From a virus (taxonomy: Duplodnaviria > Caudoviricetes): a stretch of DNA of 64,000 bases. Below the pieces are notes generated by a model. It did not search any database. It was given only the letters and a program-made list of their open reading frames with translations, and was not told where the DNA came from. Location of the stretch: the IMG/VR virus record IMGVR_UViG_2236876025_000005, positions 1,662 to 65,661 of that record, one strand, 5' to 3'. Below are positions 6,924 to 44,321 of the stretch, piece after piece. Position 1 is the first letter of the stretch, and each line of letters starts with the position of its first letter. The position numbers and the translations under genes are program-made.

Positions 6924-6951
6924 TTCGTTGTTGTTTTTTTGTTGTTATTGT

Positions 6952-7164
6952 TTATAAATCGTTGTTGTCCATGTACTCGATTAAATCCTCAATAGAACCC
7001 TGTACCGACTGTATCTTTATACACAACGTGCGTTCAATTTCGTTGTCGATGTTCTCGTAGTCGCTGACGCCGTTATCCTTTTCAAGTGAATGGACTATGC
7101 GTGCGCCGCGTTCCTGTAATTTGACGGCGGAAATATAATACTTGTCAAGTGTGTTTCCATCCAT
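6952..7164 (-). CDS. hypothetical coiled-coil protein
   Basis: 70-aa ORF. Confidence 0.6.
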   Translation of the reverse strand: MDGNTLDKYYISAVKLQERGARIVHSLEKDNGVSDYENIDNEIERTLCIKIQSVQGSIEDLIEYMDNNDL

Positions 7165-7179
7165 ACTATTCGTTTTTTT

Positions 7180-7244
7180 AAAAACCGAACCGTTGGCGCA
7201 GGGGACACCCCTACAACCAACAGCCCGTAAACCCTCTCGGGTTT
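7180..7244 (-). terminator. long hairpin terminator after portal, preceded by a GAGA tetraloop hairpin
   Basis: Minus strand: AAACCC-GAGA-GGGTTT, then CGGGCTGTTGG..TAGGGG-TGT-CCCCTG..CCAACGGTTCG followed by T5. Confidence 0.6.
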
Positions 7245-7282
7245 GTGTATCACAATAACAACAACAAAAGTGATTTCATATT

Positions 7283-38262: not shown

Positions 38263-38598
38263 CTAAAATATCTTTTCGTAAATATACTGTGACAGCCTGT
38301 TCGGGTTCACAAAAACCCTGAACGTGACACGCACGCTCACAGAACCGTCCGATTCCTCGGTGAACCTCGCCTCGTAGTCGGTGTTCCTGCGTCCGACAGG
38401 CACGACGTCAAAGTCGCCCAAGCCGTTGCAGGTGTTAAACACGTCCTGTATGTCAGCCGCGAAATCCTCCAACAGGTAGTCGCCGCCGACCGTCAGTATT
38501 CCGTCTATGTCATACTCTGACTGTATGTCCAAGACCTCAACAAGTATCATTCCGTTGTCCCTGTTCATAACTGTAATTCCTTTCCGCAAATATAACAA
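38263..38598 (-). CDS. hypothetical protein
   Basis: Probable start MNRD near 38568, after the promoter box at 38587. Confidence 0.65.
   Translation of the reverse strand: MLYLRKGITVMNRDNGMILVEVLDIQSEYDIDGILTVGGDYLLEDFAADIQDVFNTCNGLGDFDVVPVGRRNTDYEARFTEESDGSVSVRVTFRVFVNPNRLSQYIYEKIF
38587..38594 (-). promoter_or_regulatory. Bacteroidota -7 promoter box
   Basis: CAAATATA. Confidence 0.55.
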
Positions 38599-38608
38599 CT
38601 TTTACAAT

Positions 38609-39304
38609 TCAAAACAAACTGAGTTCCTGAACAACACTTCCGTCAGGTCTCCTTGTGATTCCGAGACATTCCTCGTCGAACCTCGCGCACCCCTTCCCGT
38701 AATACTCTCCGTCCAACTCGCACCCGACATAGTCGAACCCCGACTTGTACGCCGCTATCCTCGACGACTGAGAACCCATCATCGGGTCGAACACGACGTC
38801 ACCTTTCTTGGCGTAGTTCCTCAGTATCCAAGCGTACAGCGCGACAGGCTTTTGGGTGGGGTGAATCCTCAACTCTTTGTTTTTCATATCACCCTGCAAC
38901 ATTCCCTGCCACCTGAACCTGAACAGCCTGACAGCCGTCGGAAAGTTCGTCCAAGCCAACTCGCAGTCCGCGAAATCCGTCGCGCCGTTCTCCTTGTCCC
39001 AAACAATCCAACACGACGAATCGTACGGCAACCTCGAAATAAAATGGTTCGCGCCCCAAACGACGGCACGCTTGGACACCCTCAACAGTTCGTCGAAAAA
39101 CTCTCTGTCAGGTGCTTTCCTGTCCCACTCTTTCGGCGTGTATTCCTGCGACTTCGCCAAACAGCCCCGACTGTGGTTCTTTAAACCGTCCTCACCGATT
39201 CCGTATGGTCAAGGGGGGTCTGCCACGGCAAGGTCGAACACCTTGTCAGGCAAACCCCTCATATACTCAATACAGTCAACATTGTAAACATCTGATTTCG
39301 GCAT
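38609..39304 (-). pseudogene. beta-class N4/N6 DNA methyltransferase with in-frame TGA inside the catalytic motif (pseudogene or recoded)
   Basis: MPKSDVYNVDCIEYMRGLPDKVFDLAVADPP*PYGIG... is in frame with ORF 38609-39160 (HPTQKPVAL, FDPMMGSQSS); TGA at 39209-39211. Confidence 0.85.
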
Positions 39305-39322
39305 ATTCTTACATTTTATAAC

Positions 39323-39330
39323 CAAATATA
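39323..39330 (-). promoter_or_regulatory. Bacteroidota -7 promoter box (MTase)
   Basis: CAAATATA 19 nt upstream of the ATG at 39304. Confidence 0.6.
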
Positions 39331-39376
39331 TATATTTCCCTTTCGATTCAAAAGTTGCACCTCTTGTGTTTTTCAT

Positions 39377-39411
39377 AAAAAATGTAAGCGGAACACACCA
39401 TTCCGCTTACA
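39377..39411 (-). terminator. intrinsic terminator
   Basis: TGTAAGCGGAA/TTCCGCTTACA 11-bp stem with T tract on -. Confidence 0.75.
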
Positions 39412-39416
39412 CTCTG

Positions 39417-39620
39417 TCACCGTCTCGCGTGCCTGCGCTTTCTCGGCAGGTCGCATTTGAACGCCGTGCAGGTCTTGCATTTGACAGCCTTTTTCTGTCT
39501 GACGGTGTTCGTGGTTCTCTTTGTGTGCGGACGGGTGCTTGCCTCAGCCGTTCCGCAACACGCGCCCGAGGCGACCGTCACAGCCGCCATCAGGACAAAA
39601 GTAAGTAGTAAGCGTTTCAT
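39417..39620 (-). CDS. small secreted basic Cys-containing protein
   Basis: Signal-peptide-like MKRLLLTFVLMAAVTVASGA; CKTC..FKC. Confidence 0.55.
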   Translation of the reverse strand: MKRLLLTFVLMAAVTVASGACCGTAEASTRPHTKRTTNTVRQKKAVKCKTCTAFKCDLPRKRRHARR

Positions 39621-39669
39621 AATTGTTTGATTTTAAGTTGTTTATAATTTACGTCATAAGACGTTGTAT

Positions 39670-39782
39670 CTTACAGTCTGTAACCTGAATCGGTGTTTTC
39701 GCTTACAGTCAAAAGAAAAAATACAACAGGGGTAACTTTCAAACTGTAACCTCAACGGTCGTTTTTCCTTTCATACTGTAAG
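39670..39782. repeat. five ACTGTAA(G/C)-type 8-mers in both orientations
   Basis: 39670-39677 (rc), 39677-39684, 39702-39709 (rc), 39743-39750, 39775-39782. Confidence 0.6.
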
Positions 39783-39788
39783 AAAGCG

Positions 39789-40385
39789 TCATTTCAGGCG
39801 TTTGGATTTCCCGTCCGCAATCTGATAGACGTGCCGAACGTCGTCAGCCGTGATTCGTTGGTCGTGCGACACCAACAGCAGGTCGAACCCGAGGTCGTCG
39901 CACAGGGAGTTGACGAACCCTATGAACGCGCCGAAATAGGCGTCCGATACCTGAGTGAAAGCCTCGTCGAGGAATATGACCCTGCGCCTGTTCAGTTTGA
40001 CAATCAGGTACACGAGGAACACGAACGATATGACGGTTATTATTCCGCCGCCCTCAGCCTCGGACAGGTCTGTCGAGTATTCGCCCTTGTTGAGGACGAA
40101 TCGGTTGCCTTCGAGGTCGTACTCGACCTTGTAGTCGAAACCGAATATCGACTTTATCGCGCTGTTCGCCAAGTCCTCGCACTCGCGTATCGACGAGCCT
40201 GACAACAGCGGTCTCACCTGTTTGAGCGCGAGCAGTGACCGCTCAATCAGTTCCCGTTCCGAGTTTATTTCGGCGAGGGAACGCTCGGCGTTGTCGAGGA
40301 CGGACTGCACGCGGCGTATGTCGCCCGTGACGCGCTCGTACCTCAACAGTTGCTCGTTGCACCGTCTTTCGAGTTCCGCGTTCAT
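39789..40385 (-). CDS. sbcC: SbcC/Rad50-like ATPase, C-terminal half
   Basis: Coiled coil, then LSEAEGGG signature, Walker B IFLDEAF, H-loop LVSHD. Confidence 0.8.
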   Translation of the reverse strand: MNAELERRCNEQLLRYERVTGDIRRVQSVLDNAERSLAEINSERELIERSLLALKQVRPLLSGSSIRECEDLANSAIKSIFGFDYKVEYDLEGNRFVLNKGEYSTDLSEAEGGGIITVISFVFLVYLIVKLNRRRVIFLDEAFTQVSDAYFGAFIGFVNSLCDDLGFDLLLVSHDQRITADDVRHVYQIADGKSKRLK

Positions 40386-40651
40386 ACCTCTGTCCTTTCG
40401 AGTTCCGACACGACCGTTTCGAGTTCTTTTTCGAGACGGGTCTTCTCCTTTTCGAGTTCGGCTTTCTTTTCAGCCACGTTCTTTGACAGGTTGGTGTCAA
40501 CGGCGAACCCGAACTCCGAGGCGAGCGTCTTTATCTTTTCGAGGCGCACAGCCTGTTCCGTGTTGAGGCGGTCGAGTTCCGCCTTTGTCTCTCTGTAAAT
40601 TTTCTCTACGTCCATTGTTGTATTGTCTTTTAGTTTATCCTGTTTCCGCAA
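40382..40651 (-). CDS. small coiled-coil protein between the SbcC halves
   Basis: Heptad-rich; probable start MDVEK at 40615; ATGA-coupled to the C-terminal half. Confidence 0.7.
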   Translation of the reverse strand: MRKQDKLKDNTTMDVEKIYRETKAELDRLNTEQAVRLEKIKTLASEFGFAVDTNLSKNVAEKKAELEKEKTRLEKELETVVSELERTEV

Positions 40652-41799
40652 ATCGGGCAGATGTGATTGTCTATCATATCCTGTTTCTCTCTCATAGTCT
40701 TGTGAGCCGCCCTGTACGCGTCCATCAGTTCCGTCAGGCGCGTCAGGCTGTTCAGGCTCGCGTCCGCCGCGCTGAGGCTCTTCCTGACCTCAACCGCTCT
40801 CTCGGCGAGCGTCAGGACGGACGTCAGGCTCTTTATCCTCGCGTGCGCGTCCCGTGAATCGGAAATATGTTTCTCCAATTCCCTCAATAAGTCGTCCCTG
40901 AGCGCGTTTCTCCGCTCGGACAGGGAGATGTGCCGCTCGCACAGGGAAAGTCTCTCACGAGCCGTTTCCGAGGCTCTGACGGCTTTCTCCTGAGCGTCGA
41001 TACATTCCTGCAACCCTCCAAGTGCCTCAACCCTGTTGTTGAGGTCGGCTGTGCGCTCGCACGCGGACAAAGCCCTTTTCAGCCCCTCTGAGCGCGTCTC
41101 GCCGTTGAGGTGGTCTGTCAGCACGCCCGTCAGGTCTTCGGCTGTCCTGAGCGAGTTCTCGCACGTCCTGAGCGATTCCAAGCGTTCCGTCAGGATTCCT
41201 ATTCCGTCGCGTAGCCGCTGTTCCTGAGCGTTGTACTCGGACAGTTGCTGTTTGTTGTCGGTAATCATAGACGACAGTTGCTTGAACGCGCCGTTGTTCT
41301 GTTCTTTCTTTTTGTTCAGTTTCGAGTTAGCCTCGTTCATATCGTCGAACGCCTTTGACGACGACAGTATTTCGAGTATCCGTTTCTGAGAAAATTCAAG
41401 CAAAAGCGGCTTGCTGAACTGACTGAAGAAGTTTAACGGGTACTTTTGCTCGTACGCGTCGATAGAACCGAAGTTGTTGAACTCGTCTATTTCGGGCGGC
41501 ACGGTGCGGTTCAGTTTCTGAAACACCAAGTCGCCGAGTTCGTACGTCGGCGATTCCTTCCTCGTCTTGCGCACTATCAGGAGGTTCGGGTTGTCACCGT
41601 ACGACAGACCGATTGTTATCGTGTCCGCGCCGTGCCTCAGGAAACCCTGCCTGAACTTGTTTTCGCACGCCGCCCTGACAGCCCTCAGGCACGCGGACTT
41701 GCCCTGACTTGATTCTCCCACGAGTATCGTGAAACCGTCAACCTCGATGTCCGCCTCTCTGATGGACTGAAAGTCCCTTACGTTTATATTCACTGACAT
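40630..41799 (-). CDS. sbcC: SbcC/Rad50-like ATPase, N-terminal half ending in the Zn hook
   Basis: VRDFQSI, Walker A GESSQGKS, Q-loop FSQFS, coiled coil, terminal CPICG. Confidence 0.85.
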   Translation of the reverse strand: MSVNINVRDFQSIREADIEVDGFTILVGESSQGKSACLRAVRAACENKFRQGFLRHGADTITIGLSYGDNPNLLIVRKTRKESPTYELGDLVFQKLNRTVPPEIDEFNNFGSIDAYEQKYPLNFFSQFSKPLLLEFSQKRILEILSSSKAFDDMNEANSKLNKKKEQNNGAFKQLSSMITDNKQQLSEYNAQEQRLRDGIGILTERLESLRTCENSLRTAEDLTGVLTDHLNGETRSEGLKRALSACERTADLNNRVEALGGLQECIDAQEKAVRASETARERLSLCERHISLSERRNALRDDLLRELEKHISDSRDAHARIKSLTSVLTLAERAVEVRKSLSAADASLNSLTRLTELMDAYRAAHKTMREKQDMIDNHICPICGNRIN

Positions 41800-41821
41800 A
41801 AGCCTGTTGTTATTGTGTCCG

Positions 41822-41846
41822 CAAATGTAATAACAATTTTGTTACG
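41822..41846 (-). promoter_or_regulatory. -7 promoter box with palindromic operator
   Basis: CAAATGTA; TGTAATAA-CAATT-TTGTTACG. Confidence 0.65.
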
Positions 41847-41889
41847 TTGTACGCGTTGAGGTTATTTTTTTTATTCAACGGAACGTAAC

Positions 41890-42801
41890 TTATTGATTGT
41901 TACTGAATAACACCAACTGTTTGCCCTGTGTCTGTTGTTCCTTGTCGTAGAAATACCGTTTCAGGGTCTTGACGATAAACTGTTTCCCGAGTTGTGTGAC
42001 AAGCGTCTGCCAACCCATGTACGCGCGCCTGTTCTTTATATACGGATAGTTCACGAGTTCAAAGTATTTCAGGTCTATGTACTTTTGGTACGGACGTATC
42101 TGACGACCCGTGCCGAATATGATTTTCATTTCCCTGAGTATCTTAGTCAGGGTGTTCCGCCCGAACCTCGGGACGCCCAACACCTCGCTCTTTATAGACT
42201 TGGCTACGACCTCGAACGATTCCGAACCCTCTGATTCCGTCACGGCGTCGTAGAACTCAACCTTGGGTTTCTGTTCGTTGAGTTTCCTGTCCTGAACCTC
42301 AACGGTGTGTTCGGCGACAGACAATTGTTGTTTCGCCGCCGCCAATTCCTGTTCGCGCTTGCGGATTGTCTCGTCCGCTATTTTCAACGCACGCGCCATA
42401 ATCACCTCGGGGGTGTCGTCAGGCGTTGAGGCGATATAGCCGCCGTGTTTGCGGATTGACGGTAACACCTCGCCGCACACCCAATCTTGGAACGGTTCGG
42501 CTTGCGGTTTATCCGACCGCATTATTACGCGGTAAAGGTTTTGTTCATTTACAAACATTGCCTTAACTGTTTGATATACAGGTGTTCCATCTGTTTTAAC
42601 CCCCGTTTTGACCCCTACCTCGATTAAAACGACCCCATCCTGTTTTAACCTACGTTTCGCGTCAGACGGGTTATTTATCTCTAACACCTTGCATACGTCC
42701 GCCAAACAGAATAACGGTTCGTCACTTGTACCCGATGTTCGGATTTTACCGAATTGTGGGTTCTCGAAAATTTTGATTTGTTCGTTCATACCTGTAAACA
42801 T
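41890..42801 (-). CDS. BRO-N / KilAC (ANT) antirepressor-like protein
   Basis: FENPQFGKIR...PLFCLADVCKVL...EQNLYRVIMRSDKPQAEPFQDWV..EVLPSIRKHGGY; QKPKVEFYDAV...GRN.L...LR...PYQKYI..YF..T.VT..GK.FI. Confidence 0.9.
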   Translation of the reverse strand: MFTGMNEQIKIFENPQFGKIRTSGTSDEPLFCLADVCKVLEINNPSDAKRRLKQDGVVLIEVGVKTGVKTDGTPVYQTVKAMFVNEQNLYRVIMRSDKPQAEPFQDWVCGEVLPSIRKHGGYIASTPDDTPEVIMARALKIADETIRKREQELAAAKQQLSVAEHTVEVQDRKLNEQKPKVEFYDAVTESEGSESFEVVAKSIKSEVLGVPRFGRNTLTKILREMKIIFGTGRQIRPYQKYIDLKYFELVNYPYIKNRRAYMGWQTLVTQLGKQFIVKTLKRYFYDKEQQTQGKQLVLFSNNQ

Positions 42802-42840
42802 TTATAAATTAAACAATAAAAAAATTGCACGTTACGTGTT

Positions 42841-42988
42841 GTCAAAACAAATTTAACGGGAGTCAACTTTGATTTCGGGGACGTTTCCGTTACCCCACAC
42901 GTTCGCGCAATTCTTTTAATCGTAATCGCGGTGTTTTCAATATGTTTCAAACGGAGTTTTGTCAACCCCCGTTCTTTTTTGTTTTGAC
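42841..42988 (-). ncRNA. structured 5' leader RNA of the antirepressor gene
   Basis: 11-bp perfect stem plus 13-bp G-U-rich stem enclosing a GAAA hairpin; starts just after the promoter at 42993. Confidence 0.55.
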
Positions 42989-42992
42989 GTTA

Positions 42993-43024
42993 CAAACATA
43001 TAAACCGTTTTTCATATATGCAAA
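42993..43024 (-). promoter_or_regulatory. Bacteroidota promoter (-33 TTTG, -7 TATGTTTG)
   Basis: CAAACATA at 42993-43000 and CAAA at 43021-43024, 20-nt spacer. Confidence 0.7.
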
Positions 43025-43058
43025 TTTATTTAGGGTGTCACGTTTCGTTACCCCCTTT

Positions 43059-44321
43059 TTAGTAATGAAATCCTACATTCCGTTGCGCCTTCAGGAACTC
43101 TGACGTGTACACGCATTCCGAGCGTTCCTTGTCGTCCCTGAGTTTGACGAACTTTGGTCTGACGAGCGTCCCTGACGCGTTTATTCCCGTCCCTGACAGT
43201 TCCATGACCATACCGACGTATATCTGAGACCTGTCAATCTGTTTCGGCGGTTTTATCTTGGCTATCAGCCTCGGGAACGTCATACCGTCCCTCTCCTCGT
43301 ATATCGACAGTCTGAGTTTGCCGTCCTGAGTGCCTGAGACGAACGCGTCTATCGTGTCTGACATACGCTCGGTGTTGACGCGCTTTATCTTTATGTACGA
43401 CGTCTTCGGGCGTCTGTCGGTGGTGTCGTACGCTCCGTTCCTGTTCTGTGCCACGACGCCGTCGCCGCCGCTGTCGAGTATCGATTCGAGGAACACGCGT
43501 TTCTCAGCCTCGGTGGTGGCGTTCGAGCGTCTGACGGGTACGACGTTGAGACCGATTGCCTGACCTGTGCGCACGGCGTCCCCGTACACGTCGGGGTTCA
43601 TTCCGTCGCCGAGGGGTCGTTTCAGGTAGTTGACGCCGCTGACGTACAGGGGGTGTATCAGGTGGAACGTCACGAGGTCAGTCCCGTATCTCTGCTTGGC
43701 TGTGTCCTGCACGCTCAGGCAGGCGTCCCTTTCGAGCCTGACGAGACCGAGTGCCTGTTCGGGTCGGGTGTGCGCCTCGATTCCGTGGGCGTTGAGGTCG
43801 TCGGTTATGTCGAGGGGTTCGGTTATGGTCATTATGACGTCTATCGCGTACGTGCCGTCGTACAGTGCCTTCTGAGCGATTCTCGGGGCGTAGTCTATGA
43901 GTTTGCAGTCGTCTGTGTAGTTGCGCGAGTATATGTGCGTGTTTCCGCCGTTTGTTATGAGTACGGCTCGTATTCCGCGATGTTTCTCGGTGAACACCCA
44001 ATCGGGGTCTGTGTATATGCTGACCTGTTCGTCGGGTGTCAGGTCGTCTATTGGTCTCGCGAGGCAGGGCGTGTAGAATGACAGCCTGAACCTCTCCGAG
44101 GGTGTGAGCGCGTTCCAAATGTCCTGAGGGGTGAGGTCGGGTGTGAGTTCGAGACCGTGCGCCTTGTACGCATTGAGTTTGGTTAGCGCGGACACGTAGT
44201 CGCATTTTTTGAGTTCCCCGTCGCGTCCCGTCGGTCTGAGGAATCGGCTCGCGGTGTCGGTGTTGAGGAGTGACGCCGTGAGTTCCCACAGGTACTTTAC
44301 GTCCGATTTGTTGGAAGACAT
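43059..44321 (-). CDS. ATP-dependent DNA ligase-like protein with degenerate motifs
   Basis: EKHRGIR (motif I), IDVI (III), FHLIHPLY (IIIa), DGVVAQ (IV), YIKIK (V), OB domain LVRPKFVKLRDDK (VI). Confidence 0.8.
   Translation of the reverse strand: MSSNKSDVKYLWELTASLLNTDTASRFLRPTGRDGELKKCDYVSALTKLNAYKAHGLELTPDLTPQDIWNALTPSERFRLSFYTPCLARPIDDLTPDEQVSIYTDPDWVFTEKHRGIRAVLITNGGNTHIYSRNYTDDCKLIDYAPRIAQKALYDGTYAIDVIMTITEPLDITDDLNAHGIEAHTRPEQALGLVRLERDACLSVQDTAKQRYGTDLVTFHLIHPLYVSGVNYLKRPLGDGMNPDVYGDAVRTGQAIGLNVVPVRRSNATTEAEKRVFLESILDSGGDGVVAQNRNGAYDTTDRRPKTSYIKIKRVNTERMSDTIDAFVSGTQDGKLRLSIYEERDGMTFPRLIAKIKPPKQIDRSQIYVGMVMELSGTGINASGTLVRPKFVKLRDDKERSECVYTSEFLKAQRNVGFHY

Follow-up and report, generated by a model that had tools for sequence, protein, structure and literature searches.

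In-frame stop-hopping has been known since 1987, from engineered constructs in E. coli only, and according to the field's main review, no natural stop-hop is known (PMC5009743). In the synthetic stop-hops (Weiss, Dunn, Atkins, and Gesteland 1987, as summarized in PMC5009743), matched codons flank a stop codon, 9 nt are decoded as a single amino acid, and the product is two residues shorter than the product of readthrough. By the same summary, a stop codon that is decoded slowly is needed in the A site.

Here, we describe a candidate for a natural stop-hop, in a phage gene for a DNA methyltransferase (the methylase). The gene lies in a 64-kb stretch of DNA, which we will call the window, from an IMG/VR record of 65,661 bp (CheckV completeness of 46%). 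Within the catalytic motif of the methylase, two proline codons, CCU and CCA, flank an in-frame UGA. With the hop that we propose, the site would resemble the synthetic stop-hops in its matched codons, its product, and its A-site stop. Those were engineered and have low yield, whereas the methylase site is natural, is found in many phage genomes, and lies inside a catalytic motif. Unlike the synthetic sites, it is also preceded by a very strong hairpin.

The bypassing site in gene 60 of phage T4 is another close parallel. In both cases, the take-off codon matches the landing codon (CCU and CCA, both Pro, at the methylase) and a stop codon occupies the A site. The allele-specific hairpin on the 5' side of the methylase site also agrees with bypassing of this type. 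The gap in gene 60 is 50 nt (PMC7026636), while the gap in the methylase, at just 6 nt, is too short to accommodate a take-off stem-loop or an internal SD-like element. Neither a stem-loop of the gene 60 type within the gap nor a 3' stimulatory structure is present at the methylase (z = 0.22 for the 3' side). A nascent-peptide signal is part of the comparison to gene 60, and we put forward none for the methylase. The codons in gene 60 encode Gly rather than Pro, and the gene that hosts the methylase site is dispensable. Finally, the insert in gene 60 is part of a mobile cassette with the homing endonuclease MobA, and it protects the gene from this nuclease (bioRxiv 10.1101/2022.08.31.505936). 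In contrast, the methylase record (46% complete) lacks a homing-endonuclease gene.

The byps of Magnusiomyces mitochondria (Lang et al. 2014, as summarized in PMC7026636) are also short inserts in coding sequence that do no harm thanks to matched take-off and landing codons, and they resemble mobile elements. As that summary describes them, they are 27-55 nt long, have a stem-loop inside the gap, and belong to mitochondrial translation, whereas the methylase insert is 6 nt and is from a phage of bacteria.

Two other kinds of recoding involve UGA. At shifty stops, such as the CCC_UGA sites of +1 frameshifting and the Pro-UGA pause of tnaC, which in E. coli ends with CCU_UGA, peptidyl-tRNA(Pro) is in the P site and a slow UGA is in the A site (PMC3082878). 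The methylase site would have the same arrangement, but its +1 and -1 frames are unproductive (both reach stops within 7-11 codons) and only an in-frame event gives the enzyme. In the programmed UGA readthrough of bacteria and phages, as in the methylase, an in-frame UGA has a weak context and the frame continues open. Unlike those sites, the methylase has no 3' stimulatory structure, and readthrough leaves both the extra Pro codon and the 5' hairpin unexplained. Also, the readthrough product would carry an insert that is absent from 157 aligned homologues.

An in-frame UGA in the catalytic motif of a methyltransferase

The minus strand of the window reads GAC CCC CCT TGA CCA TAC at 39220-39203, or D-P-P-stop-P-Y, in the frame of a methyltransferase that opens with the ATG at 39304 and closes with the TGA at 38611-38609 (Table 1). 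The translation reads ...FDLAVADPP*PYGIGEDG..., or, at greater length, ...KVFDLAVADPP*PYGIGEDGLKNHSRG.... The pattern CCN CCN TRR CCN TAY occurs once in the window, versus 0.01 occurrences expected by chance. No single ORF encodes a contiguous catalytic motif, (D/N/S)PP(Y/F/W); this would take either a +6 hop (giving DPPY) or readthrough with Trp (giving DPPW).

Relative to uninterrupted genes, the stop allele has an in-frame excess of exactly two codons (6 nt). An earlier note on this DNA had pointed out the in-frame sequence, the 6-nt excess with a UGA between matched Pro codons, and the exact DPPY that a hop from CCU to CCA would yield. All of this is correct: the DNA and its translation agree, the 157 aligned homologues all lack the two codons, and removing the 6 nt restores the motif of the family.

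The note had also given the gene its own promoter and an upstream terminator, and promoter-like and terminator-like sequences are present (Table 1). The consensus for promoter boxes in Bacteroides is TTTG / TAnnTTTG, and the sigma-70 scan does not cover promoters of the Bacteroidota type. The terminator-like hairpin upstream had only sub-threshold noise matches in Rfam. TAnnTTTG boxes are also found before the next downstream gene (38583-38600, minus strand). The boxes at both genes suggest a Bacteroidota host and gene-by-gene promoters.

Table 1. Features of the methylase locus, with positions in the window
Feature	Position	Strand	Details and evidence
Whole frame of the beta-class N6/N4 DNA methyltransferase	38609..39304	-	232 codons, including the internal TGA and the extra CCA; translation, PF01555, PDB matches
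ORF1, 31 codons (M...ADPP) and the internal TGA	39209..39304	-	Translation
Predicted RNA hairpin, 18 bp (GGGGUUUGCC...GGCAGACCCC), codons 16-30	39215..39258	-	Predicted fold, dG of -29.4 kcal/mol
Proposed take-off codon CCU, second Pro of DPP	39212..39214	-	Sequence
In-frame UGA followed by C (UGA-C)	39209..39211	-	Sequence
Proposed landing codon CCA	39206..39208	-	Rarest Pro codon of the phage (35 uses versus 221 for CCG)
TAC, catalytic Tyr of DPPY, where coding resumes	39203..39205	-	Sequence, translation, homologues
ORF2 (PYGIGEDG..., HPTQKP block, SAM-binding FDPMMGSQSS motif), open to the natural stop	38609..39208	-	Translation
Bacteroidota-type promoter-like boxes: TTTG at 39352-39349, TAtaTTTG at 39330-39323	39323..39352	-	Sequence inspection
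Terminator-like hairpin upstream of the methylase, 10-bp stem at 39410-39384, T-run at 39382-39377	39377..39410	-	Sequence inspection
SbcC-like ORFs	41799-40630; 40651-40382; 40385-39789	-	389 aa; 89 aa, coiled coil; 198 aa, ATPase C-terminal part

Apart from the stop codon, the window copy of the methylase shows no lesion

The protein matches the Pfam profile PF01555 at 55.2 bits (the cut-off is 26.7), and a six-frame search of the genome gave 50.6 bits and found one PF01555 gene in the record, which is incomplete. Sequence matches in PDB include CcrM, MboIIA, and DpnA, and they span both the N-terminal part with DPPY and the C-terminal SAM-binding part. In one of the PDB alignments, a gap of two residues falls precisely where the stop and the Pro are. 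The motifs are in the order of the beta class: ADPP..PYG (motif IV), HPTQKP, and FDPMMGSQSS (motif I, which binds SAM).

The earlier note held that the N-terminal 31 amino acids and the C-terminal part were otherwise intact, and it named decay downstream of the stop as something to check. In the family, 101 columns are conserved at 90% or above, and the window copy keeps 96 of these. The five others are conservative changes (V for I or E for Q), and four of them are common to the close intact alleles. This check found no lesion in the window copy beyond the internal stop, downstream or otherwise. The family consensus, YGIGEDGLKNHSRG, is still present in the stretch of 16 codons that separates the UGA from the first possible restart codon.

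We also compared two stop-bearing phages of about 141 kb, the window type and a phage of 141,881 bp. Six neighboring proteins are 89.4-98.7% identical (1044/1101 positions pooled, or 94.8%). The two methylases show 95.5% identity in their C-terminal parts, where neither another stop nor a frameshift occurs. If the stop codon predates the split of these lineages, then the downstream part would seem to have evolved like a constrained protein; the mosaic alleles described below show recombination instead.

The distribution of the insert

The two extra codons are absent from the wider family. D-P-P-Y-G is uninterrupted in 80/80 homologous loci from IMG/VR and in 157 of the 160 alignable loci from viruses and metagenomes; the other three end at a contig edge before the motif. 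The two codons are also absent from all 118 database proteins. The 157 alignable homologues are all at 73% identity or less to the window methylase. No relatives closer than this were found in IMG/VR or the metagenome collection, and there was no close relative among GenBank phages. In IMG/VR and 185,579 species genomes, degenerate DNA patterns for D-P-P-(TGA/TAA/TAG/TGG)-P-Y-G-I-G had no match elsewhere, so neither collection holds a version of the insert with the sense codon for Trp. The exact DNA pattern of the site had no other match in the viral contigs of IMG/VR or in the species genomes. Judging by these searches, the insert is specific to one clade.

To examine recurrence within this clade, we looked up the exact ORF products in a collection of 15 billion proteins. 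The gene call for the C-terminal part (38609-39160, 183 aa) has identical copies on 16 contigs elsewhere (from Logan and ENA; the longest is 141,489 bp), and the exact N-terminal products (31 aa and 55 aa) are on more than 20. N-terminal gene calls that end with ...ADPP fall into six variants by sequence and are spread over up to 27 contigs. There are at least 4 variants of the C-terminal split form, including P0126 (on the contig of 141,881 bp), P0127, and P0128. (Two cluster mates of the N-terminal peptide, P0135 and P0138, turned out to be unrelated proteins.) Intact alleles of 229 aa are found as well: P0001 and P0123-P0125, which are at 91-93% identity and come from 7 contigs. With a partial intact allele from one further contig (P0129), close intact alleles total 8 contigs. 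Thus, in a group of phages of about 141 kb, the stop allele makes up the majority, and intact alleles co-circulate with it, which implies that the insert is not required.

The stop allele is present in at least 4 diverged backgrounds, so relatives do keep the site, which the earlier note had also listed as a check. The alleles are mosaics of shared polymorphisms. In particular, one stop-bearing allele (P0136+P0127) has a C-terminal part that is identical to that of the intact allele P0001, which indicates that recombination next to the site was recent. Also, the 5' 115 nt of the gene share 15/27 words with the methylase of another genome, and that methylase does not come up with the 3' 581 nt as the query.

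Two related contigs have additional changes. P0128, from a contig of 24,855 bp, has an in-frame deletion of 10 amino acids that includes the conserved ...ELAWT... block. P0204 reads ...ADPPLDHTESVRTV*, a +2 frame after DPP that would take two additional bases in the C-run (8 C rather than 6). Both changes look like either decay in some lineages or (homopolymer) sequencing error.

A strong hairpin abuts the proposed take-off codon

Just upstream of the stop codon, the mRNA is predicted to form a very stable hairpin (Table 1). Its last pair includes the third base of CCC, which is the codon just 5' of the take-off CCU, so the hairpin ends one codon before take-off. The hairpin is stronger than expected by several measures. 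First, none of 200 dinucleotide shuffles fold as well (z = -5.65). Second, the equivalent 48 nt of the 157 uninterrupted homologues have a mean of -8.1 kcal/mol (standard deviation 4.0), and the best is -21.0 kcal/mol. Third, we recoded the same peptide synonymously 3000 times with the codon usage of the phage: the mean was -14.5 kcal/mol (standard deviation 3.6) and just one recoding reached the native value. Fourth, among 15,988 windows of 48 nt on the minus strand, the hairpin is the second strongest, and it is the strongest fold within any coding region of the window. (The strongest, at 7181-7232, reaches -30.7 kcal/mol in 48 nt. It lies in an intergenic gap of 359 nt, at 6924-7282, and is probably a terminator or a processing site.)

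The hairpin depends on the amino acid sequence of the stop allele. For the peptides of three close intact alleles, the best of 3000 codings each reached -24.9, -22.5, and -19.4 kcal/mol, so these peptides cannot encode the hairpin. It follows that the amino acid differences between the stop and intact alleles make the stem possible. Five sites in residues 1-12 differ among the six stop-bearing variants of the N-terminal part, while residues 13-31 are invariant. The intact close alleles show the reverse pattern, with no variable sites in residues 1-12 and 7 in residues 13-31. The block without variation across all of the stop-bearing alleles is exactly the one that the hairpin covers, and this block behaves as a unit. 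Because it is specific to the stop allele and abuts the take-off codon, the predicted hairpin counts independently in favor of a programmed signal.

No Rfam family matched at the hairpin. On the other side of the UGA, the downstream 46 nt fold no better than shuffled sequences (z = 0.22), so we rejected selenocysteine insertion as an explanation for the UGA.

A proposed stop-hop

To yield the enzyme, the ribosome must pass the UGA in frame. Both the +1 and the -1 frames stop, so we rejected frameshifting. We also rejected termination followed by re-initiation: the first in-frame start, the TTG at 39160, is past the catalytic Tyr and its product lacks motif IV. Phase variation at the C6 run was rejected too, as no run length removes the in-frame TGA. 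This leaves an in-frame event. Readthrough-stimulating structures lie 3' of the stop (PMC7026636), whereas the only strong structure here is 5' and abuts the take-off codon, so we rank a hop above readthrough.

Specifically, we propose that the methylase gene is still used and that the internal UGA is passed by a programmed +6 stop-hop from CCU to CCA. We consider this the best explanation, although its chance is somewhat short of even. We infer the hop, its yield, the role of the hairpin, and any benefit from the sequence. In this scenario, ORF1 would be translated through the very stable hairpin, and the ribosome would pause when peptidyl-tRNA(Pro) is paired with CCU and the A site contains UGA-C. 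Termination would be slow here, as the stop is a UGA that follows Pro-Pro and precedes a C. Decoding is especially slow with Pro before UGA; UGA is the least efficient stop codon, and its 3' neighbor matters (PMC3082878). None of the 77 true ORFs in the window end in Pro. During the pause, the 3' arm of the hairpin would occupy the E site along with the exit channel for mRNA, and the 5' arm would have already emerged. Re-zipping of the hairpin would then help the mRNA to move forward and counteract slippage by -1 onto the C-run. (Refolding of the mRNA on the 5' side has been described for bypassing; PMC7026636.) Once released from CCU, the tRNA would pair anew with the CCA six bases downstream, and reading would resume at TAC. 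This would yield an enzyme with the canonical D-P-P-Y-G, probably in low amounts, with most ribosomes ending at the 31-aa peptide. Synthetic hops are inefficient, with yields on the order of a per cent.

What would the phage gain? The synthesis of the methylase could be throttled or could depend on conditions. In addition or instead, the insert could protect the conserved stretch of DNA that encodes DPPY from the homing nucleases of competing phages. A more specific proposal is that the hairpin-coded front end of the methylase and the CCU-UGA-CCA form a transferable cassette, which would spread by gene conversion and alter the DNA that encodes DPPY, for example to make it immune to homing nucleases, while a hairpin-assisted hop restores the enzyme. 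We view this as possible but doubtful. If it is true, the methylase would provide the first stop-hop from nature and a minimal counterpart, at 6 nt, to the bypassing in T4 gene 60.

The earlier note had suggested programmed low-level or conditional expression of the methyltransferase by a stop-hop. The anatomy of the site, its recurrence, the intact halves of the gene, and the hairpin all favor this suggestion; on the other side are the rival explanations that still stand (discussed below), the extra lesions in relatives, and the intact alleles.

As a candidate for a natural stop-hop, the methylase site is small (about 100 nt) and directly testable, as the two possible products are two residues apart. 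If the hop is real, then neither a long gap nor a take-off stem-loop is essential for bypassing, a hairpin on the 5' side can drive it, and annotation pipelines are discarding working genes as split genes or pseudogenes.

Alternative explanations

The methylase might no longer be made. The 5' block (the front end, the hairpin, and the 6-nt insert) might be a selfish or defensive DNA cassette that is spread by gene conversion; for example, the insert might destroy the site of a homing endonuclease. The good state of the gene would then be due to recent and repeated conversion and not to selection on the protein. The invariant haplotype of the block, in lineages whose flanks differ by 5-10%, is consistent with this, as are the recent recombination beside the site in P0136+P0127, whose C-terminal part is that of the intact P0001, and the similarity to the methylase of another genome, which is confined to the 5' block. 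The insert that blocks cleavage by MobA in T4 gene 60 would be a precedent (bioRxiv 10.1101/2022.08.31.505936), and two related contigs (P0128 and P0204) have further lesions. However, we did not find an HNH (PF01844), HNH_3 (PF13392), or GIY-YIG (PF01541) domain anywhere in the 65.6-kb record (46% complete). The neighbors of the methylase are SbcC-like and SbcD-like genes and ORFans. We rejected linkage between the stop allele and the adjacent downstream ORFan (38263-38568), as a 96% identical copy lies on a contig with an intact allele (P0205). Furthermore, an insert that acts at the level of DNA needs neither matched Pro codons nor a hairpin that is optimized at synonymous sites, and the window copy has kept the conserved residues of a methylase (96/101 columns, with conservative changes at the other 5). 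Overall, we consider a selfish cassette without a working enzyme rather unlikely. If it is correct, it would be a new way for competing phages to contest the DNA of a conserved catalytic motif.

A functional gene might instead rely on a near-cognate tRNA, most likely that for Trp, to read through the UGA. This would give D-P-P-W-P-Y-G, at low yield as termination competes. The fourth residue of motif IV can be W, as in (D/N/S)PP(Y/F/W), so the tetrapeptide DPPW is legal. The earlier note had called the readthrough product a broken DPPxPY, which is too strong for the tetrapeptide, but the two-residue insert is indeed a difficulty. In all 157 homologues, the Gly comes directly after the aromatic position, and the readthrough product would have two residues in between. 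Neither IMG/VR nor the 185,579 species genomes contain a sense version, DPP-W-PYGIG. The evidence that the gene is intact applies equally to readthrough, and UGA-C after Pro is a weak and slow terminator (PMC3082878); UGA-C is rare among the true stops of the window, as only 5 of the 41 true TGA stops are followed by C. But known stimulators of readthrough are 3' of the stop, and here the 3' side is unstructured (z = 0.22) and the strong structure is 5'. Readthrough also does not explain why the extra codon encodes Pro. We therefore think that readthrough is unlikely.

The stop allele could also be an ordinary and recent inactivating insertion in an accessory gene, that is, a pseudogene that has yet to decay, with a hairpin that is coincidental or has another role. 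Orphan methylases of phages are dispensable, so a dead copy could persist, and there are intact alleles at about 93% identity and extra damage in two relatives. But this does not explain why the stop allele is the majority form and is found in at least 4 diverged backgrounds, or why four independent controls all show the hairpin to be extreme and its extent exactly matches the invariant block. Also, we estimate that an in-frame 6-mer that contains a stop would recreate a Pro codon here with a chance of about 6%. A recent pseudogene seems improbable. Taken jointly, a non-functional cassette or a pseudogene has roughly one chance in three.

Lastly, an artefact of assembly or sequencing, which the earlier note had listed as an alternative, or a TGA that is read as a sense codon, is very improbable: the site does adjoin a run of six C's, where one related contig appears to differ by 2 bases, but the split products recur in assemblies from JGI, ENA, and Logan, on over 20 contigs, and exact N- and C-terminal products on many independent contigs rule out an artefact of a single assembly; the in-frame TGA remains at every length of the C-run; and there is no sign of an alternative genetic code or a suppressor, as TGA is the commonest true stop (41/77 ORFs), ORFs under table 11 cover 86% of the window with all large genes open, which implies that TGA is not reassigned in this phage, and no tRNA genes, including suppressors, were found in the window.

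The surrounding region

All genes in the window are on the minus strand. The methylase lies between SbcC-like and SbcD-like genes, among small ORFans, and its neighbors are otherwise without nuclease domains. The SbcC/Rad50-like ATPase (39789-41799, minus strand) is spread across three consecutive overlapping ORFs (Table 1). These could form a naturally split enzyme, or they could contain further recoding or frameshift sites. The SbcD-like partner (37506-36628) is 2.3 kb further on, with the methylase and three ORFans in between. Between the SbcC-like gene and the terminator is a 67-aa ORF (39417-39620, minus strand), which had no match in Pfam or PHROG; it has an N-terminus like a signal peptide and a C-terminus that is Cys-rich and very basic.

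The GC skew of the plus strand changes from about -0.25 to about 0 at 39.3 kb, near the 5' end of the methylase, and becomes positive after 43.3 kb, where the cumulative skew has its minimum; the coding strand does not change. Because this minimum is near 43.3 kb and not 39.2 kb, the hairpin is unlikely to be a replication origin. The change in GC skew across 39100-43600 could be the sign of an origin or terminus of replication, or of a mosaic joint.
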